DNA of 63,972 bases, filler included, from Neolecta irregularis DAH-3 (Eukaryota): the NCBI GenBank assembly GCA_001929475.1. It is 4 parts of 4 records of this genome, joined end to end, with 100 filler letters (N's around TTAATTAATTAA, not from the genome) between each part and the next. Parts side by side here need not be neighbours in the genome. Positions count along the whole stretch, not along the records: positions 9,280 to 30,448 come from LXFE01003116.1; 3 more parts are not named here. One strand, given 5' to 3'. The translations under genes were made by a program, and so were the position numbers. The notes under the pieces were generated by a model. That model saw nothing but the letters and a program-made list of their open reading frames with translations. It did not search any database and was not told the origin of the DNA. Shown here in pieces: positions 4,016 to 63,972 of this stretch; the stretch's first letter is position 1, and the number at the start of each line of letters is the position of its first letter.

Positions 4016-4872
4016 ATGACTATCGCAATCATAACAGGAGCAGCTCAAGGTATTGGAAAGGCAATTGCTTTGCGACTTGCTCGAGATGGTATCGATGTCG
4101 CGCTATGTGACCTCCAAATCCAACAGACTCTTCTCGAAAATACGAAGGCAAATATCGAAGCACTGGGTAAATTTCATTTAATCCCACAAAGACTAATTTT
4201 AAGGTCGAAAATCCATAATTCTGATGGGCGATATATCCTCTTCGATATTCATTGAGACCGTAATCTCCGAAACCGTATCACGTCTCGGGCCACTGGACAT
4301 TATGATCGCTAATGCCGGAATCGCAGGGACCTACTCCAAAATCTCAACACATTCACTCGATGTTTTTGATAAACTTGTACAAACAAATATTCGTGGCACA
4401 TTTCTTTGCTACCAACATGCTGCAAATCAAATGGTAAAACAAGGTGGCAAAGGAGTGATCGTTGGAGCGGGGAGTGTAACAGGTCAACAAGCTCTGCATG
4501 GATATCCCGTCTATGGAATGACAAAGGCGGCGATCAGAGCATTGACTCAATACACTGCCCAGGAGTTTGGAAAACAAGGGATTCGATGCAACTCTTACTG
4601 TCCAGCTTCTGTTGAGACAGAAGTATGACCTGATTACTTGATATGACTAACAGCCCTCATAGATGGTTATGAAGAGTTTTGCTACGATCGCACAAGCAAC
4701 TAAGACCCCCCTTGAGGATCTCAGAGCTAGTTACTCTGGAATAAATGGAGGAATGTGTACCCCGGAGGATGTAGCGAATTTGGTTAGTTGGTTATGTTCA
4801 GATGAGTCATCTTTTCTTACAGGCCAGAGTGTTACAATAGATGGAGGATATCTGATGAAACATAACCTTTGA
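4016..4872 (+). CDS. Short-chain dehydrogenase/reductase (acetoin/diacetyl reductase-like)
   Basis: TGAAQGIG, NAG, YGMTK, TGQSVTIDGG; introns 4167-4203 and near 4624-4662. Confidence 0.9.
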
Positions 4873-9179: not shown

Positions 9180-9279
9180 NNNNNNNNNNNNNNNNNNNNN
9201 NNNNNNNNNNNNNNNNNNNNNNNTTAATTAATTAANNNNNNNNNNNNNNNNNNNNNNNNNNNNNNNNNNNNNNNNNNNN
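9180..9279. other. Artificial scaffold-concatenation linker
   Basis: N run + TTAATTAATTAA (stops in all six frames) + N run, 100 nt; the same linker recurs at 30449 and 61703. Confidence 0.97.
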
Positions 9280-12871: not shown

Positions 12872-12881
12872 NNNNNNNNNN

Positions 12882-12996
12882 TATCACACCATCTGTCAGT
12901 GTTGACCAGTAGAATCACTCTCTCGCTTCATCGACTTTTGCGAATCCCTGCACTCCAATCAGTCAATCTAGCGACGGAGATTGGAAACAGGGCATT
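12882..12996 (+). repeat. Gap-flanked near-copy of 9346-9460 (allelic assembly fragment, 2 SNPs)
   Basis: 115 bp identical except T/C at 12882/9346 and A/G at 12930/9394. Confidence 0.9.
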
Positions 12997-13006
12997 NNNN
13001 NNNNNN

Positions 13007-14444: not shown

Positions 14445-14933
14445 TTAAGAGCGCTCGCCACGAAGTCTTCGTGCCAATTGCATATCCTTTGGCTGGATAG
14501 TGACTCGTTTGCCATGAATGGCGCACAAGTTAGTGTCTAGGGGTGAGATTTGTGCAAAAGGATAACGGATACCTTCAAAGAGAGAGACAAGGTAAGCTTC
14601 AACGGCTTCTTGAAGAGCACCAATAGCCGAAGATTGGAATCGGAGATCGGTCTTAAAGTCTTGAGCAATCTCTCGAACAAGTCGCTGGAAGGGCAATTTT
14701 CGAATAAGCAATTCGGTAGATTTTTGGTATCGTCGGATCTCTCGAAGAGCAACAGTACCGGGGCGGTATCTGTGGGGCTTCTTAACACCTCCGGTCGCTG
14801 GGGCGGACTTTCGCGCAGCTTTGGACGCGAGTTGTTTTCGCGGGGCTTTGCCACCAGTAGACTTTCGTGCAGTTTGCTACAGAAGAGTGAGCATACGAGC
14901 CGACGCCTGCCTGGATACCTTAGTTCGGGCCAT
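14445..14933 (-). CDS. HHT1: Histone H3
   Basis: [24 protein letters not shown]...[25 protein letters not shown]...[23 protein letters not shown]; two introns. Confidence 0.97.
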
Positions 14934-15498: not shown

Positions 15499-16079
15499 TT
15501 ACTCTCTCACACTCCAATCTCCACTCTTTCCCCCGACCTTTTTGATAACTTTGATGTCTGAGATGTGCATATTTTTATCCACAGCCTTACACATGTCATA
15601 GACAGTTAGGCATGCAGCAGTCACTGCTGTCAAAGCTTCCATTTCTACACCTGTGGCCCCCTGGCATTCCACGGAAGCTTCGACATCCACACATTTGTCC
15701 TGAAGAAACAAGCAAACTGAGACACTTGACAGTGTGATATTGTGACATAAGGGAATAATATCAGCGGTTCTTTTAGAGGCCATTATTCCGGCAACTCGCG
15801 CGGTCGCTAGGACGTCGCCCTTGTTAATCAAGTTTGAACGAATGAGATCTGCGACGACGGGATCAGAGAATATAACTTTGCCCTTAGCGATTGAGAGCCG
15901 ATTTGTGGGACTTTTGGAGGTAATTGCCACCATGTGTACTGCTCCATTTTCGTCAAGGTGGGTTAAATCCTTTTTTTTAGAGGATGTTGAATGTACTCGC
16001 AAACCGAGTGTTGAAATTGAGGATAAAGTATTCGTCCATGGAAGAAGCCTTGAACCGTTGGGTTTCATTGTCATATTAC
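15499..16079 (-). CDS. MOCS1B: MoaC/MOCS1B cPMP synthase (second cistron or fusion exon of the MOCS1-like locus)
   Basis: LTHLDENGAVHMV, KGDVLATARVAGIMASKRT..IPLCH, TGVEMEAL, YDMCKAVD, KVGGKSG. Confidence 0.93.
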
Positions 16080-16119
16080 CTATAACATTAGTCAAAATCT
16101 TTCCGCAAAAGCATACCGT

Positions 16120-17334
16120 TTACCCACCTATCAAGATCATCGGTCTATTCTTCATATTTTCCAACATTCCTATGCCCGCATGTTCTTTCTTCTTCCTTTT
16201 AACTGCCATCCCAATAACTTCAAGCATCTCATTGTCGGAACAACCGCTTCTTATCATATCCCTTAGTGAAACTTCAGCGTTTCCGAATAAACAGACTTTT
16301 AAATTCCCGTCCGACGTAAGTCGTAGACGATTACATGTTCCGCAAAACTTGTGTGTCATGGATGTGATGAATCCAATCCTTCCGGTGTGACCATTAATTT
16401 TGTAGGTTTTCGAGGTGTCATTCATATCATCACTGTCTTTATGCAGGGAGGGATGTTGCTGGCGGATAATCGATAGCATCGATTGATACGATACCATTTT
16501 TTCGGTTTTCCACTGATTTCCTGCCATAAGCGCGGAAATTTAAGAGAGGGTACCATCAAAAGGCATATACTCGATAAAACGGACATGTAGAGGTTTGTCT
16601 TTAGTCATGTCTACGAAGTCGAGGATTTCATTGTCATTAAGATTTTTTATAACGACGCAATTGATTTTGAGAGGATGAATTCCAAGATTTAGCGCTTGAT
16701 CGATTGATCTCAAGACATGTGACAATCCTAATAGCTTAGTGGTTTCTAGAGTTTGCGTATTTGCACCATTTTTGCGCGAGATCAACTGATACTTGAATGG
16801 ATCCAGAGTATCCAAGGACAGATTCAAATGAGTCAATCCAGCATCGATGAGCGCAGGAAGCTTCCGGTTTAATGCAATTCCATTGCTTGTCATAGCAATC
16901 TCCTTCAACCCGTCTTGCCGAAGATCCCCTAGTTGCTGAACCAATTGAATTATATCCTTCCGTACAGTAGGTTCTCCACCAGTAAGACGAATTTTGGAGA
17001 CTCCCTGGCCGACAAAAAGCCTTGCCAATTTTAGAATCTCTGGGGTTGTGAGTAAATCATCAGAGGGCGAGAGCTGGACGCCTTCCTCAGGCATGCAGTA
17101 TGTACAGCGAAGATTGCACTTTTCTGTGATGCTTATTCGTAGATAAGTGTGCTGGCGAGCGAAACCATCCGTCAAAAAATCCGAAAATGGGCGTGCATTG
17201 CTGATCGCAGATGGAACAGAAAACTGTCGGACAAAACGTCGGAATAAATTCGTCCTATCCGCAGCGCACTGTAAGGATATCGTCCTAGAAAGCAGGAGCA
17301 TTTGAGCGGTAGTCGTAGCTAGACAGCGGGGCAT
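16120..17334 (-). CDS. MOCS1A: MoaA/MOCS1A radical-SAM GTP 3',8-cyclase
   Basis: [44 protein letters not shown]-terminal MILIGG*; mitochondrial-like presequence; two introns. Confidence 0.95.
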
Positions 17335-17449
17335 TTGGGGGCGACTGTGTGAACACAGAAAAAAAAGTGGCGACATGACGAAATGGATCAATAGATACAT
17401 CACACATGTATCTACTCTATCTACTATTTATACAAGTCATAATAATATT

Positions 17450-19652
17450 CTATGTAGCTTCGACCATCTCTCTTTTCCTCTTTTGTTTTTCAGCTTGGTC
17501 TTCACTCCCCGCAGTCAGCAAGCTCTGTGACATAGAAGATGTATCGTGCTTCAAGATCTCTCTCAAAGCCATCGTGGCATACTGCGACTGCGCAAGAGCA
17601 AGTTGAACCTTGACCGCCATGAATTGTCCATCTGATAAAATTAGCAAAAGGTGAGCAAGTACGACTAACTACCCTCAACAATCCCGTCTGGTTTCCGGTT
17701 TTCAAGAATGTCCGCATCAGTAGGTACTAACTGTTTCTCAGTATCGTTGTACCGCAGGATATCCCAATCAACGTGGAATGCTCGTGTTACAATATTCCGA
17801 TAACTGCCCATCAACGAGCATTCCTTGATCGGTCTTCGCATGCTAAACGGATCCAGCTCATCTTTCTTCATTATTTCGACATATGCATCCCGAATTTCAT
17901 TATCTGGATAGATAATATCGAAGCCAGGAAGTGGTAAAACCACATCGTATATCGTATACGAATGTAATTCTTCTTCGCTAAGAGGTCGTGCTCGAGTCAC
18001 TTCTTTCATCGGCTGAATGTTTGTACTAAATTCTGGCGCTTCAGGATCAAATGGATCAGCATCTTGTTCGGCTTGCTCTTGAGATGTAATCAGGACAAGA
18101 TCACCTTTAACAGGCTTCATTCCGTAAACTCTCAAACGTTCGGATACAACTCTATTCCATACTAGCGATTGGTACGCATGAAGATATATTAAACGCAGAT
18201 TTCGAGGTATCTAGAATCAGTAATGATAGTCAAAAGAATTATACCGATTGAAAAGCAGTCGTCCATGCTGTGTGCCCGCCTTTAGCTAAAGTCCGAAGAA
18301 TGGAACATTCCGCAACGCATCTCCTCGGCATCAGTTTCAATGCTTCGCCCGCATTTTTAGTCTGAGACCAAATCTTTCTCGCTTCTAGTGAATCCGATCT
18401 GATTGTTTCTCGCTCTGTTAAGATAAGGTCAATGGCAGCCTCCCAGTCGACTTGTAAAACCGCTCGACCAATTTCATAGGTGCCAATTGACGAAGTACCG
18501 AACCTCTGCATTCCGTAGTAATTCACAAAACCATCTTCGCGAAGATTTTTCAGAGCTAGATGAATAGCTTCTTCTGAAGGTGCTTTTACATTTCTGCTAG
18601 ATCAGACCAACGGAAGATAGGACGAATGCCTAAGAACGATAGTAAATTCATTGCCCGAAAGATCCCCAAGCTGAAGCCCATTATTCGAATAACTGAAATT
18701 TCCAACCTTGACACCTCGGAGGTTTTTCGTCAAAGGTTCAATTCGCTCTGCTCGAATTTTGTGAGCGGAAACTCGTTGTACAGTAACCGCTCTGCGATCT
18801 TTTGTTCCAGCATATCCAAAATTTCGAGTATGCGTGCCAATTGCTTTTGAAAAGTTGCTGATCACTTCCATTGTATCTCTGTTTTCTTTATATAGCGAAA
18901 ATTGACAGTATACACCGCCAAGCTCAGCCCACGAAAGACTCTTTTGTAGTCGTCTGTTATCTTTTCCGTTAAGAATTTATTCAGATGATGACTTACTTTT
19001 CCCTTGATTCCAACTAATTCGGATACGAGCATCATCAGTCATTGTAGTCTCGAGTTTGTTGTTGAAAACTTTTCGCATGGTTTTGTGAAACTTTGTCCGA
19101 GCTTCCTTTTTGTCAATTTCCTGGAAATTGATACTTGATAGTGTAGGAATTTATACCACTGTAAACACTTCTTTAGGTTCTTTCCCATGCGTAACGAATA
19201 ACGCTTCAACGCTGGCGAAAACTTTTTCGCCGAGTAACTCTTCAACCATTTTTCGATCTTCTTCAGTGATCTAACAGCTCAGAATTACTATTAGAAAGAC
19301 ATTTTGCCTCGTGCTCTTTCAGTTTCTTATCAAATCCATTTTGTTCCGGTTCTTTCCTCGGCAAAAATAATTCTGGTTTTCCAATCTCTGTCAAATGTAT
19401 GACATTGCCGTGCTCGTCAACTTCGTTCACAAGAAAATCCGTATATCTAGTGCTTGTTTTAGCTATGTAGCAGCATAATGGTTTCTACCGTTGCTTGATA
19501 ATGCCACTGAATCCTAAGGCTTCGGGATGGATGAATTCCGTTATACCAACAGAATCTTCGGTGAGTGTATACACATCTTCTATGGCAGCTGACGGCACAG
19601 TGGATCCATCAAGATATACTTTTTGTTTCTTCTTCGGCGGTTCAGTGGCCAT
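17450..19652 (-). CDS. PUS7: Pseudouridine synthase 7 (TruD family)
   Basis: GIIKQRYTDFLVNE, AGTKDRRAVTVQ, GNEFTIVLR, NYYGMQRFG, YLHAYQS, GSYR, YATMALRE. Confidence 0.93.
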
Positions 19653-30448: not shown

Positions 30449-30548
30449 NNNNNNNNNNNNNNNNNNNNNNNNNNNNNNNNNNNNNNNNNNNNTTAATTAA
30501 TTAANNNNNNNNNNNNNNNNNNNNNNNNNNNNNNNNNNNNNNNNNNNN
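30449..30548. other. Artificial scaffold-concatenation linker
   Basis: N-TTAATTAATTAA-N, 100 nt. Confidence 0.97.
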
Positions 30549-31859: not shown

Positions 31860-33026
31860 CTATATGATAACCAATGGGTCTCTGTCTTCTTCACTGCAGA
31901 GAACCTTTGCGCCCAGAGAATCCTGTGACAGCAGTGTTGCCAATTTGTGCTGCATTACCGCGCTCAGAAACCCCCGTTCCGTATTCGAATGTCCGCCTGC
32001 CGAGTCAGCTTGAAAGATAAAGACCACTACAAATAACAGTACTCGTTCCTGACGCCAGATTGGCTAGCAGTTCATGGTGGCCAAGTTCCCCTGTAAAAAA
32101 TACATCGGCTTTGACTCTGCGGAATACCGACCCGCCTATGTTGTCAATTTAAATTCCCGAGATATCAACCTGAGCCAGCGCAGATGCCGATTGTTTTGAT
32201 AACCTCTGAAGGATTATCACCACTATGGTGTTCTGCAATTGAAGCTTGTACTGAACCGTCAATCAAGTCTACATTCAACCCACCGTTGTGCAATCCCAAA
32301 TGTAATTTAATCCTCGTTACCAGCGTTAAGAATGATATCCCTTCTCTAAGCGTAACCAGTCTCCCCATTCCAGACCCTTCATGTCCTTCAATCGTAACTT
32401 GTGACNNNNNNNNNNGCCCACCGTTGTGCAATCCCAAATGTAATTTAATCCTCGTTACCAGCGTTAAGAATGATATGCCTTCTCTAAGCGTAACCAGTCT
32501 CCCCATTCCAGACCCTTCATGTCCTTCAATCGTAACTTGTGACTCTTCAATAGCCTCTCTACTTCTTTCATTCTCTCCCCCACCAGAAACACCATTGGCT
32601 AGCCAGTCATTGATTCCACCAATAGCAGCATCAACGCTCGTATGCGGACAATACACACTTATCCCAGCAGCTGCCAGCTGTAATAATGAGCTCTGCTGCG
32701 AATCCCCCATTGTCAACGATTTTAACCCTCGAAAGATAATCGGATCTACCCAAAGTATATAAGCACAATCCCATCGATGCTCAGTAATCACGATAAGCAA
32801 CAATCACACCCGCGCCTTTCTGAATAGCTTCCTGCGCAACAGATCTCGTCAAATCAATGGTCAACAACACATTTCTCTTTCCCGGATCTACAAATGGCGA
32901 TTCAAGAAGAAGACCAGTGTTGTCCCATGACTTATCCGCCAATTCCAATGGATATAAACTCTTCATTGAACGCATTACGCTGGATAAAAGTGACTTTGAG
33001 CCATGTATCGTCGACGGTATCGACAT
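31860..33026 (-). CDS. NIF3: NIF3/NGG1-interacting factor 3 (contains an artefactual duplicated segment)
   Basis: LADKSWDNTGLL, LLTIDL, AY|PIIF, PHTSVDA..GGINDWL, GMGR, ICAGSG, TGELGHH, HSNTERGF. Confidence 0.92.
32279..32543. repeat. Two near-identical 127-bp copies flanking a 10-N gap (allelic bubble)
   Basis: 32279-32405 vs 32417-32543, differing at C32339/G32477. Confidence 0.9.
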
Positions 33027-33567: not shown

Positions 33568-36273
33568 CTAAAATAATCCAAGCATATCTTCCTCTGCCGA
33601 TTGGTGATTTTGAGGTTGTTGGTTTGGAGCTGGTGTCGATTCCCATAAATTATCGTGTAACGAAAGGGCATCAAATGGTGGAGTTGTCGATGTTCCTGGT
33701 TTTGGAGTAGGTGCGTTTTGTGTCTGTGCGTTTGAATTTGAATTGAACATTGAGAAAAGGTCGTCCATTGTAGATGTGGGAGTCGCGGATGATGCTACTG
33801 GAGCGTTTTGTGCTGATGGCAGGTCAGGAGATTGAACAATAGGAGATGGATCCAGTTCAAAATCTAGCAGATTCTCAATATTGCTTTTCTGTGCAGATGG
33901 TTGAATTGGATTCTCTCGAGCGATCTGCTTCAGTTCACTGGATGGTCAAAAGTGCTCTCGGTAGATACATACTCAATTGCTTGTTGTTGAACATCATCCA
34001 CACCCTGACTTCCAGATTTAAGGAATGTGCTGGCGGGGCGATGATATACTGCAGCCAAGGTCGACAATTCCGCAATCATTTCTCGGAGTAATTGTGGCGA
34101 AAGGCAATTTCCATTACTTGAAATTGGCTCTCTTGGAGCAAGAACGATATCCTGGGAAAATCAGATTCTTCTCGGATTTAACGGAACAACCTTTGAGATT
34201 TCAGGGCTGCTCGATAAAAGCCGCCAATAAATATATGCACGGTCTCGCAAGTCTGGATTATCGCATTCTGAAGTAGCTGTTTGCAACATCTTTTGTACTA
34301 ATTCTTGATTCATCTTTGGTTTTTTGAGGAACAGTTTGACTGTTGCCGCGAGTAGTTGTAATTGTACCTTTAAATAAATCCAAGAGTCATAAAATTGAAA
34401 CTTGCCTGTGTTGTCTCGTCTTTGAAATTCTCGAGATACATGGATAGCAGTTCATTCGCATTCTCGATTCTCTCTGCATATTCTCCAATAATCCAGATCA
34501 ACGCTCCTTGAGCAGCAGGATCGTCCAATTCATCTATATTTTCGCAAAGTTGTGGGATGATTCCTTCATAACACGATGGATATTTTCGAAAGATATCCTG
34601 ATGCTTAGTCAAGGTAGTCGAAAACATCACCTTGATGACCACCACTGCTTCCTGCACCACATAATTGACTTTAGTATTGATCAAATCTAAAAGAACATTG
34701 ATGCAACGCTCTGCGGCGCCATTCAACTTGATTGCACACTGACCAATCGCGCGAACAGCGCGTCTCACAAATTCTACATCGACTTCAGAAGCATACCTTG
34801 ATGGTCAGTGTATACAAGTTTCAACTAGCATACTCCTTTAGCTCCATCAACAGCTGGTCCATATTCTTCTCATTCGCTAGCTTTATCATAATCTCCAGTT
34901 TTTCAAATTTCACATATTCCGGATCATTATATTTGCAAAAAAACACACGCAACTCTTTGCCCAGAATCTCTGGATATTTTTGGAGAATCAAATTGATATT
35001 TCTGAGAGCGACGTATTGGACTTCTGGAGCAGTAGATAGAAGAGTGACTAGCTAATGAGATTCTCAATGCTAGCAACGATACCAAGTGGAGGAGCCATTT
35101 TCTTTAGTAATTGCCGCTGCATGTCCTCTCCAACTGTTTCCAAATGCATTAGAATAACCTTAACGGCGCTCATAACGACACCTGCATTTGCATGTTGAAA
35201 TTGCGGTACAACTCGCTCGCATATGTGTTCGGCTTGGGTAGCATCGGTTGTCTTGTAGTTTGCTAAGGAAGTAAGAACAGCGATTCGTCCCCATCTAAAA
35301 ATTGTGAGATTTGTAAAACAAGCACAAAATATATACTCTGTGCATTCGTTTAGAGCTATGAGCAGTTTACTAAGGGATCCACTGGAGACTCTTAATGCGC
35401 GGGTCTCGGGTGCTGTTTCTTGGATTTCAGAAAGCGCCTGTACTGCATTTGCAACAACCTGCCCAGTTAAGCCAGTTCATTCGCAATATATACCATAGGG
35501 TTTCCATCGCCTAAAAGTTCTTGAAGATTATTTATGAATCCATTTTCGATAGCCATTTCAGGATTAAGATCGAATAGTTTGGCGACACATATAGCAGCAG
35601 TTTTCCTTACGTAGGGGCTTTCATCCTACAGATTAATCCTAAAGGAAAGACGAAACATGCTTTCAGCCCTTTACGAAGGGGTTCAGTAATATAATCGATC
35701 ATTTTGTCAACCCGAATGCAACCCATTGTCCGAATTGCAAGTGCCCTTACCAACGGATTTGGATCCTCCGAGTCCTGTGATTTCATTAACGTATCCTGTA
35801 GATAAAAGGCACCTGCACAAACGTATTAACAGCCAGAATACATAGATCAGGATGTGTCTTGGCGTAATTCCTATCACATCAGCCGAGAGGTTCGCCGAGC
35901 CCCCAACATTAGATATAAATAAACCAACTTCTTCTGAGCGAGATCGTGAGTCGCAATATTTTTCAAAACGTCGGGAAATAATGCAGAAACATCTTTCCCC
36001 AGTGTCATAGCAGCAATTGTCCGCTGGATTGCTTCCTTGCTGTGGAGTATTAGATATGAAGAAAGCAATGACGAACCGCTCATATGCATATTGTGAAACG
36101 AGGCCGCTCCGAAGTTCGAAAGTCTCACCTTTGAGGACGTTAGCTAGTTGACGAGATTTATTGCGAATATGAGTTGCTAACTTGTGTTGCATTTATGGAA
36201 ATGGAGGTTCAAGTTTAGACGCACCTTTTCGCGGAATCGTGCCGCTGCTAGTTTCGCGAGTAGTAGTGGCCAT
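33568..36273 (-). CDS. APL2: AP-1 adaptor complex beta subunit
   Basis: [82 protein letters not shown]-terminal DMLGLF; many introns. Confidence 0.9.
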
Positions 36274-61702: not shown

Positions 61703-61802
61703 NNNNNNNNNNNNNNNNNNNNNNNNNNNNNNNNNNNNNNNNNNNNTTAATTAATTAANNNNNNNNNNNNNNNNNNNNNNNNNNNNNNNNNNNNNNNNNN
61801 NN
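61703..61802. other. Artificial scaffold-concatenation linker
   Basis: N-TTAATTAATTAA-N, 100 nt. Confidence 0.97.
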
Positions 61803-61920: not shown

Positions 61921-63972
61921 TGTAGGCCTCTAATTAGCAGCCTTGTATTGTATATATATTAGATAGAGCTGACCACCAGCTCCTTGTCTTAGTACAAGCA
62001 TAGCTGANNNNNNNNNNACTTGTATTGTATATATATTAGATAGAGCTGACCACCAGCTCCTTGTCTTAGTACAAGCATAGCTGATGGTCAGGTAATAGAT
62101 GGTCCTAGTACAAGTGTAGCTGACGGTCAGGCATCACCAACCGTCCATAAGATACAGCAGTATCTTACATTTGGAGGTCCTCCTGTGTGGAGATCCAGCA
62201 CGCACAGCTAAGACATATGGATTCTAAAACATTCGCATGAATCATGGAGCAGGTTTCTGCTGCCATCGGTACATCAGTGGCCTCGGCAATAGACCAGGCC
62301 ATCACAAGAACTCAAGAATCAGCAGCAGCAAATGCAGCTGCATTAGAAAACCACTTCACAGCAACAGTCGCACAAGCAGTCACAGAGGCTGCCAAAACGA
62401 CTGCATTAGCAGTACAAAGAGCTGCACAATTACCCAAATTCCAAAAGTTTTCTGGTAACGAAGACGTAAACGATTGGTGGTTCTCAGTTATTGAGATATC
62501 CCAAGGATACGAGTTTCAGGTAGGCGAGTTTAAAAGGTTGATCTTCGAGTCACTCGGAGGGTATGCAAAGGAATGGTGGCAGGACAATAAAGATTCCCTG
62601 GATACCGCCAGTTCCACCACTTGGATCTAGAGTTGTTCTGAGGGGAGTTCATACCCAAAGGATACCTATTTAAACAAAGAATCTCGTTCAACAACCTGAA
62701 GGTCCAAGGATCGATCACTGGCTTCATAACCAACTTCCAGTGACTGAAATTGAGAGTCGATTACCCAGAGTCAGTACTTGTCCAAGGATTCATTTGCACT
62801 TTCGCATCGGTACCAGCATACCAGGATAAATTAATTGATAAAAATCTGGCTACCATATTGGAAGCGATAACAATCGAGAGAGAATTCGAGCTCAAGAAAT
62901 CTATGATTAAAATGGGTAACAACATTGGAGGTGGGGGAGGATAAACCCCTATGGAAATTGACAGAATTAAGAAAAAGTTGTACTGCAAGTTTTGCAAGTC
63001 GGCTAATGGCCACACCAAACCTCGATGTAACAGATTCAAGAGGGGGAAGAACAAGTTTCGACAAAGTAATAATGTCAAGGCGGGAAAAGGCCAAGAGGGC
63101 GTGGATGGAGAAGCCACCCCCCCTCAGTAAATGAAAAAGTTAACAGAGTATTAGATAAAAATAAACCTGTTGCATCACTTAAAACTTCTCCCACACTTGA
63201 AATTGTGAACACCAGCATCTCAGGCACGGGCCTCATAGAATTCCCTGCAAGATTATCCAAAGGAAAAATTGAAGGGAAGGCCATAGCCTTGAAACATGAA
63301 CTTCGTTTCAAAAAATTACATTGAAAAACTCAGATTACAAGTCTGGAAAATGGGAAAATTGCTCAAAGTCGTAATGGTGGACAAAAATGAGGGTCAAGTC
63401 AAACCACAACCTCAGCAGCTGGTCGACCTTTGCATTCATCTACCTTTGGACCAAGGGGAAATAAGTTTTGAAGAAACCTTCGAGGTAACAAACCTTGGGG
63501 GGTATGACATACTCTTGGGGAAAAAATGGCATGAACTCTTTCAACCGAAAATCGATTACCACTCCAATTTATGCAACATAGCAGGGCACAACCTGATTAC
63601 CGACTCTGTGCATAATCAGGTTGAGACCTGTCATATTGCAGAAATTGTCGAGACAGATGAATTGATTCTGATATCAGTTAACAAAGCTAGTACAGACAAT
63701 GAGGAAACTCAGCAGTAGAAGGAGATACAAAAAGTCATCAAGGAATATAAAGATGTCTTCAACGAAAAATTCCCATTTCCACCACAGAGGGAAGAGGATC
63801 ACAAGATCACCCTAGTGGATCCACTGAGAAAACCCCATAATCAACCCTTGCCTCAACTATCAATAACTGAAGAAAATGCTATGAGAGAGGAGGTCAAGGG
63901 TCAAATCGCAGATTCATCCAACCAAGCTCATCACCCTATGGAGCAGTGTGCTTATTCGTAAAAAAGAAATCT
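61921..63972 (+). mobile_element. Degenerate Ty3/gypsy LTR retrotransposon (5' LTR ~61921-62169, PBS, gag, damaged protease, start of pol/RT)
   Basis: TGTAG...TTACA LTR, PBS TGGAGGTCCT, gag (FSG.EDVNDW, LGGYAKEWW, PMEID, CxxC...H...C knuckle), YDILLGKKW...PKID, KDVF...PP.R..DHKI.L, SSPYG...LFVKKK; several stops and frameshifts. Confidence 0.9.

Follow-up and report, generated by a model that had tools for sequence, protein, structure and literature searches.

We find that, in the ascomycete Neolecta irregularis DAH-3, the coding sequences for MoaA and MoaC lie in one locus, and that the Gly-Gly codons and stop codon that end MoaA sit inside a potential 48-nucleotide (nt) in-frame intron, removal of which would fuse the two proteins. 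The locus occupies positions 15499–17334, on the minus strand, of the 63,972-nt stretch analysed here (assembly GCA_001929475.1; hereafter the window, along which all positions are counted). With a probability of roughly 0.65, we take it to be the Neolecta ortholog of Neurospora nit-7, Aspergillus cnxABC and animal MOCS1, with an optional splice that skips the MoaA stop codon. The fused Neolecta reading is already in public annotation and is hence not new. What is added to existing knowledge is the asymmetry in donor strength, in that the donor for fusion is weak and the one that keeps the stop is strong, how very small the switch is, and the finding that the public protein model is shortened. 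The features of the locus are as follows.

15499–17334, minus strand: the whole MoaA–MoaC locus (nit-7/cnxABC/MOCS1-type), from the MoaA ATG (17334–17332) to the MoaC stop codon TAA (15501–15499).
16554–17334, minus strand: MoaA exon 1 (781 nt), with a presequence-like N-terminus, the radical-SAM cysteine motif PFSDFLTD...CNLRCTYC and the radical SAM domain.
16521–16553, minus strand: MoaA intron 1 (33 nt, GTACCC...CTTATGGCAG), removal of which gives MPFDG/NQW, matching the public protein P0001.
16128–16520, minus strand: MoaA exon 2 up to base 1 of the first Gly codon, with the Mob_synth_C domain; common to all isoforms.
16120–16128, minus strand: GGT GGG TAA, the MoaA C-terminal Gly-Gly and stop codon, as read from the sequence.
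16122–16127, minus strand: fusing donor GTGGGT (context tag/GTGGGTAA), in phase 1 within the first Gly codon; gives the 48-nt in-frame intron with acceptor 16080.
16118–16123, minus strand: candidate donor GTAAAC, arising from GGG then TAA; gives a 44-nt intron, the junction of which recreates GGG TAA.
16111–16116, minus strand: candidate donor GTATGC, 3 nt past the stop codon; gives a 37-nt intron and keeps the Gly-Gly-stop.
16087–16091, minus strand: branch-point-like CTAAT, with the branch A at 16088, 8 nt before the G of the 3′ splice site.
16080–16081, minus strand: shared acceptor AG (TTATAG/GT), from the sequence reading and P0001.
15976–16074, minus strand: MoaC leader MTMKPNGSRLLPWTNTLSSISTLGLRVHSTSSK; ATG codons lie at 16074 and 16068, and the composition is mitochondrial-presequence-like.
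15529–15933, minus strand: MoaC catalytic domain, Pfam PF01967 (residues 50–184 of the 193-residue translation of the open reading frame).

The MoaA frame ends with ATG ATC TTG ATA GGT GGG TAA (16140–16120, minus strand), encoding ...ILI-Gly-Gly-stop, and the exon beyond the acceptor begins GTAATATGACAATG at 16079 (minus strand). Joining 16128 to 16079 takes out 48 nt, and the resulting ATA G/GT AAT ATG reads ...IGNMTMKP in the MoaC frame. Joining 16124 to 16079 takes out 44 nt and recreates GG/G TAA, while joining 16117 to 16079 takes out 37 nt and leaves GGT GGG TAA unchanged. The open reading frame (ORF) of MoaA exon 2 (16120–16539) and the MoaC ORF (15499–16119) share one frame, with only the TAA between them. 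Pfam identifies Radical_SAM (PF04055, 3.5e-30), Mob_synth_C (PF06463, 2.3e-36) and MoaC (PF01967, 8.1e-50) at the locus. With the full N-terminus, the predicted sizes are 393 residues for MoaA and 584 residues for the MoaA–MoaC fusion (exons of 781 + 393 + 578 nt). The MoaC ORF is unlikely to be a pseudogene, as it is intact and has a Pfam E-value of 8e-50.

Every sequence feature looked for in a dual cyclic pyranopterin monophosphate (cPMP)-synthase gene is present: a MoaA-type ORF, a Gly-Gly-stop, a downstream MoaC ORF on the same strand and a splice pair that joins the two in frame. The dual-donor arrangement of the nit-7 type is also seen in the sequence, as a candidate GT lies 3 nt after the MoaA stop codon and shares the acceptor. 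An initial annotation of this stretch had described a MoaA–MoaC locus and compared it with animal MOCS1. A MoaA/MoaC gene of the MOCS1/nit-7 type is supported, with the Pfam domains bearing out both enzymes, and the coordinates given in that annotation, as read on the minus strand, are all correct.

When the MoaC ORF was searched against longer proteins, 1713 matches were obtained, of which the best 120 were listed. The top match, P0001 ('Molybdenum cofactor biosynthesis protein 1 [Neolecta irregularis DAH-3]', 504 residues, 100% identity), joins 16128 to 16079 (i.e. donor 16127 with acceptor 16080) and reads ...ILIGNMTMK, the in-frame product that the initial annotation had derived for an intron containing the Gly-Gly-stop. 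It also agrees with the 33-nt MoaA intron at 16553–16521 (MPFDG/NQW). P0001 begins at MPEEG, without the 80 N-terminal residues encoded from the ATG at 17334 (17094–17334, minus strand). The missing stretch includes the presequence-like start and PFSDFLTD...CNLRCTYC, which is kept in Saitoella and Pezizomycotina sequences. The shortening is probably an annotation error, and P0001 should be corrected to restore its first 80 residues, the iron-sulfur cluster motif among them.

If the intron splits a Gly codon in phase 1, behind its first G, the junction residue of fused proteins is predicted to have a codon that starts with G. Among the 120 fused relatives listed, the best of the 1713 matches, 105 carry the NRPxxLI motif; the other 15 do not, and include insect and unrelated long proteins. 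The residue that follows NRPxxLI is D in 70 of the 105 motif-bearing models, G in 26, A in five, V in three and E in one, such that all 105 have a G-first residue at the junction. This pattern fits a single conserved phase-1 junction. The fused model from Saitoella coloradoensis, a second Taphrinomycotina lineage, has the junction ILIG/DVTRK. Among the 120 near-length relatives of MoaA exon 2 that were listed, 108 have a Gly-Gly C-terminus and 104 of these end RPMILIGG. No stand-alone Neolecta MoaC was present among the best 120 near-length matches.

We also scanned metagenomes for the DNA of relatives. This matched 595 stretches, from which 80 loci were kept and two were inspected in detail. 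In one of the two (L001), a GC-rich ORF for MoaA finishes with Gly-Gly and is adjoined by a long ORF on the opposite strand; in the other (L002), a MoaA runs to ...LIGG-TAA at the contig end. The scan yielded no fungal junction DNA, with the other 78 of the 80 loci judged prokaryotic-looking from the listing alone (∼35% identity over both domains, or MoaC only). Several loci (L007, L009–L013, L015–L017, L034, L062 and others) match P0001 from residue 1 to about residue 500 at ∼35% identity in a single stretch of ∼1.36–1.43 kb, which suggests that these contigs may be contiguous prokaryotic MoaA–MoaC fusions with no stop between the domains. In the full-text literature we found nothing that joined Neolecta with the molybdenum cofactor, and a search of the cnxABC splicing literature found nothing on Neolecta.

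Donor strength was judged against the introns of the window itself. De novo inference of introns, in which ORFs were joined using expectation maximization, was dropped because spurious ORF pairs swamped the signal, and was replaced by exon pairs anchored on Pfam: 164 ORF pieces were scanned, and junctions were kept where adjoining pieces matched consecutive parts of one family. With two histone H3 introns and MoaA intron 1 added, this gave 16 anchored introns, for which the donor was the sole possibility in nine, the best at closing the profile gap in five and ambiguous in two. These introns are 30–42 nt long, with a median of 37, and mostly have GTAY-type donors (e.g. 4167–4203, 18211–18244, 34797–34833 and 14537–14572). 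Position +3 is A in 13 of the 16, position +4 is T in nine and C in four, and position −1 is G in 11. There is no preference for G at +5, where nine have C. A branch-like CTAAT, CTGAT, CTGAC or CTCAC is found a few nucleotides before the AG, and four of the 16 have GACTAAT, GCTAAT or CTCTAAT; the branch point and acceptor of the MoaA–MoaC locus resemble those of the anchored introns. The histone H3 gene (14445–14933, minus strand) has introns at 14918–14877 (42 nt, after MARTK) and 14572–14537 (36 nt), the second of which is in frame and free of stop codons, so that the unspliced ORF reads through it.

A position weight matrix built from the 16 anchored donors gave the following scores for the three donors of the locus, with percentiles taken over the 6571 GT sites of the window.

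Donor 16116, minus strand, acgGTATGCTT: +4.45 bits, percentile 99.2 of 6571 GT sites.
Donor 16123, minus strand, tggGTAAACGG: +0.75 bits, percentile 89.7 of 6571 GT sites.
Donor 16127, minus strand, tagGTGGGTAA: −3.51 bits, percentile 40.5 of 6571 GT sites.

With matrices built from only 14 or nine of the introns, 16127 fell at the 28th–34th percentile and the other two at the 93rd–99th. Together with the junction used in P0001 and the G-first residues of the 105 fused relatives, the ranks of 16116 and 16123 speak against a layout due to chance. The 37-nt intron that starts at 16116 has exactly the median anchored length, and its donor hexamer is the same as that of the anchored Adaptin intron (34833). 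The initial annotation had named GTATGC at 16116 as the closest of the three to consensus; by the local measure this holds more strongly than expected. It had also pointed out that use of 16123 would recreate GGG TAA across the junction, as the sequence confirms. By these local donor rules, the default splice would keep the stop codon. The fusing donor is inherently weak because its overlap with the Gly-Gly codons forces GT-GGN, and donor 16123 exists because GGG is followed by TAA.

We then considered the sequence that precedes the MoaC domain. Counted from the ATG at 16074, the MoaC leader has 33 residues with no acidic residue, four K/R and 12 S/T, and an equally extreme composition occurs in 30 of the 7198 33-residue windows taken from likely coding ORFs of the window; the test is a crude composition count and not a targeting prediction. 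On composition only, the N-terminus of MoaA has one acidic residue and five K/R in 33 residues. The leader would fit both a linker with an internal signal and a cleavage site, as in human, and a stand-alone presequence. The suggestion in the initial annotation that MoaC borrows the presequence of MoaA is therefore retained as one option and not as the sole one, because the leader is itself presequence-like, as is the human MOCS1B linker.

The closest relative of MoaC among the matches listed is P0121, a 181-residue MoaC from a JGI record (1.8-kb contig) that is 81% identical. It keeps the leader part NTLSSMSTLGLQTYSTSSK, and its start differs, at the T of WTNTLSS, such that conservation of the two Met codons is not visible. 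A protein search with the MoaA query did not find a MoaA part of P0121. Fungal and insect MoaA–MoaC linkers have a patch close to R-x-[FYW]-[ST]-[ST] (e.g. RLFSTT, RYFSVS and LRYYSTK; alignment columns about 810–860), which resembles a mitochondrial processing-peptidase site. The corresponding sequence is RVHSTSS in Neolecta and QTYSTSS, with no Arg, in P0121.

In the reading that we favour, messages that keep the TAA (16122–16120) would encode the 393-residue MoaA with a free C-terminal Gly-Gly. These would be either unspliced or spliced from the strong donor at 16116, and possibly also from 16123. A minority of messages would be spliced from the weak donor at 16127 to the acceptor at 16080, thereby losing 48 nt that include a Gly and the stop, and would encode the 584-residue fusion ...ILIGNMTMK.... 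From the parallels in Neurospora and human, this fusion would be expected to enter mitochondria and be cut in the linker, releasing active MoaC. We show the layout of the sequence, the identity of the domains, the conserved phase of the junction and how the donors compare in quality; the use of each donor, the import and the cleavage in Neolecta are inferred. A plain two-state switch, between retention and the 16127 splice, fits the data as well as a version with three donors.

Several observations weigh against a stop-skipping splice in Neolecta. GTGGGT, the fusing donor, ranks with random GT sites (−3.5 to −4.6 bits, 28th–41st percentile), and its intron, at 48 nt, exceeds every one of the 16 anchored introns (30–42 nt) in length. 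The far stronger donor at 16116 lies only 11 nt away, so that fusion could be rare or absent. The two Met codons of the leader and its presequence-like composition would also suit independent translation. Most of the 105 fused models are automated, and most come from related Sordariomycetes, so that they are not independent observations; variable codon positions 2 and 3 alongside a fixed first G are still informative. P0001 is likely to be a gene prediction without RNA support, because a 2026 paper (PMC13263728), which describes the first RNA-seq of N. irregularis and gives a GEO accession (GSE300630, 75-bp paired-end reads), states that no RNA had been extracted from the species before. As to the donor score, the leave-one-out scores of the anchored introns range from −8.5 to +5.5 and five of the 16 fall below zero, so a score of −3.5 is compatible with use.

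It is unlikely that all three donors are used in vivo, as a three-way switch that sets the MoaA:MoaC ratio, a proposal that is compatible with the favoured reading. Donors 16116 and 16123 are good by local standards (99th and 90th percentiles, and 93–99% in the subsets), and N. crassa has two donors flanking the Gly-Gly-stop (PMC7232280). However, 16123 follows automatically from GGG plus TAA and gives the same protein as 16116 or no splicing; there is no selectable difference among the stop-keeping forms because all encode the same MoaA. The second donor of N. crassa was, moreover, dispensable (PMC7232280). We regard it as distinctly improbable that there is no fusion at all, with the 37-nt intron (16116–16080) removed or nothing spliced, and MoaC made from the ATG at 16074 or 16068 with its own presequence, via a transcript start inside MoaA or reinitiation. 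Such expression would suit a fusing donor no better than a random GT, a 16116 donor in the top 1% with a median intron length, two Met codons no more than four residues from the acceptor and a leader composition matched by only 30 of 7198 control windows. The MoaC start would lie 8 nt from the MoaA stop after the 37-nt splice and 1 nt after the 44-nt splice. Reinitiation after an ORF as long as the 393 codons of MoaA is generally inefficient. P0121, at 81% identity, shows no visible conservation of the two Met codons, no Met precedes the MoaC domain in the Saitoella linker, and independent expression would leave the frame match and the conserved junction phase unexplained. Evidence from other species points both ways: the human MOCS1B linker alone targets mitochondria, but human MOCS1B is reported as not expressed independently (Mayr et al., 10.1101/429183), and the Neurospora experiments (PMC7232280) also weigh against independent expression.

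We think it very unlikely that the 37-nt splice is the default and most messages are bicistronic, with MoaC made largely by termination–reinitiation or from an internal transcript start and the fusion a minor or relic route; if true, the locus would produce a functional two-cistron message in a eukaryote, tuned through 5′ splice-site choice. It is hardly credible that ribosomes read through the TAA of unspliced mRNA to give a fusion with 16 extra residues (...ILIGG-x-TVCFCGKILTNVIGNMTMK...). The two ORFs do lie in one frame with a single TAA between them and no further stop before MoaC, but in about half of cases chance alone would leave thirteen codons open. TAA followed by A is not known to be a read-through context. 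Folding of 16050–16160 gives z = 0.44, with no structured RNA element predicted. The Gly-Gly of the product would also be internal and not free, and there is no precedent in this gene family.

Upstream of the locus, the last ORF piece of a TruD/Pus7-like neighbour (...REMVEAT) ends with a TAG at 17452–17450, on the minus strand (region 17335–17452), only about 115 nt from the MoaA ATG. Because this gap is so short, promoters and 3′ ends at the locus must be very compact or overlapping. The initial annotation had argued that no separate MoaC promoter fits in the ∼40 bp between the ORFs. This argument is weak, since a transcript could start inside the MoaA coding sequence and the upstream gap is itself only about 115 nt. 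Elsewhere, the window contains 304 N, as three pairs of 44-N runs 12 bases apart and four 10-N runs (stretches at 9180–9279, 12872–13006, 30449–30548, 32406–32415, 61703–61802 and 62008–62017), presumably masked or gap sequence.

With this locus, the stop-skipping layout of nit-7/MOCS1 reaches Neolecta and, by way of the fused Saitoella model, another lineage of Taphrinomycotina. The initial annotation had left open whether the switch was kept or rebuilt. Keeping fits better than rebuilding, as nit-7 has the same G/GT donor and a second donor after the stop and the fused Neolecta protein is already in public annotation; the shared junction phase with Neurospora argues for a switch that is ancestral in Ascomycota and not rebuilt. 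A general constraint also emerges: any fusing donor that overlaps the Gly-Gly codons must be GT-GGN and inherently weak, and a donor of this kind is essential in Neurospora. With a weak fusing donor set against a strong donor 11 nt away and a mini-intron of 37–48 nt, the locus would be a very compact natural system for 5′ splice-site competition that sets the ratio of two enzymes.

The closest known system is N. crassa nit-7, as described by Wajmann et al. (2020; PMC7232280). There, the unspliced message gives NIT-7A, with the Gly-Gly and stop inside a single intron, and splicing deletes nt 1460–1696 to give NIT-7AB. Their Table 1 lists NIT-7A as nt 1–1467 and NIT-7AB as nt 1–1459 + 1697–2664. 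The exon therefore ends after base 1 of Gly codon 487, because NIT-7AB stops at nt 1459 and resumes at 1697; this codon is GGT, as in Neolecta, because the mutation that kills the donor is 1461T>C. On nitrate, the 1461T>C strain (#555) did not grow significantly. A second donor, at nt 1469, 1 nt after the stop, turned up in 5′ RACE, and its removal by 1470T>C left growth like wild type, making it dispensable. NIT-7B alone was not mitochondrial, whereas the AB fusion was, with NIT-7B released after import (all PMC7232280). Direct experimental precedent for a stop-skipping fusion, which the initial annotation had cited for animal MOCS1B, thus exists in nit-7, and likewise in human MOCS1 (10.1101/429183).

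By its sequence, the Neolecta locus is a scaled-down version of the nit-7 layout: the phase of the junction is the same, and so is the pair of donors on either side of the stop. In both, the two domains are in one gene with the Gly-Gly-stop within a (in Neolecta, potential) intron, the fusing donor is a G/GT in phase 1 of the first Gly codon (nit-7 nt 1460, Neolecta 16127), and a second donor lies just after the stop (nit-7 nt 1469, Neolecta candidate 16116). The N. crassa protein has an N-terminal mitochondrial presequence, and the Neolecta N-terminus resembles one in composition. In N. crassa the A protein comes from messages that keep the stop and the AB fusion from spliced ones, and the Neolecta layout would permit the same. 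The predicted intron, however, is 48 nt in Neolecta compared with 237 nt in nit-7; the candidate second donor is 3 nt past the stop compared with 1 nt; and the Neolecta linker, a short one, carries two Met codons directly at the junction.

In human MOCS1, type I (bicistronic) transcripts keep the Gly-Gly-stop, and types II and III lose the stop to encode MOCS1AB; the linker encoded by exon 10 contains an internal signal for targeting, and a processing-peptidase site is predicted in it (Mayr et al., 10.1101/429183). As proposed for Neolecta, the Gly-Gly-stop is kept or removed by splicing, the A domain of the AB fusion is inactive and its B domain active, and a presequence-like linker precedes the MoaC domain, the human fusion being cleaved inside mitochondria. 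Human MOCS1 differs in that exon 9 is alternatively spliced, losing either 15 nt or all of its length, that the introns are long and that there are alternative first exons, whereas Neolecta has a single mini-intron with competing candidate donors within 12 nt.

In Aspergillus nidulans, cnxABC is likewise one fungal locus for MoaA-like and MoaC-like domains. It is discussed in PMC7232280 as a bicistronic transcript with separate translation. The same paper describes plant cnx2/cnx3 and bacterial moaA/moaC as separate genes with no splice switch: the two enzymes and the C-terminal Gly-Gly of MoaA are the same as in Neolecta, but there the two activities are encoded apart.

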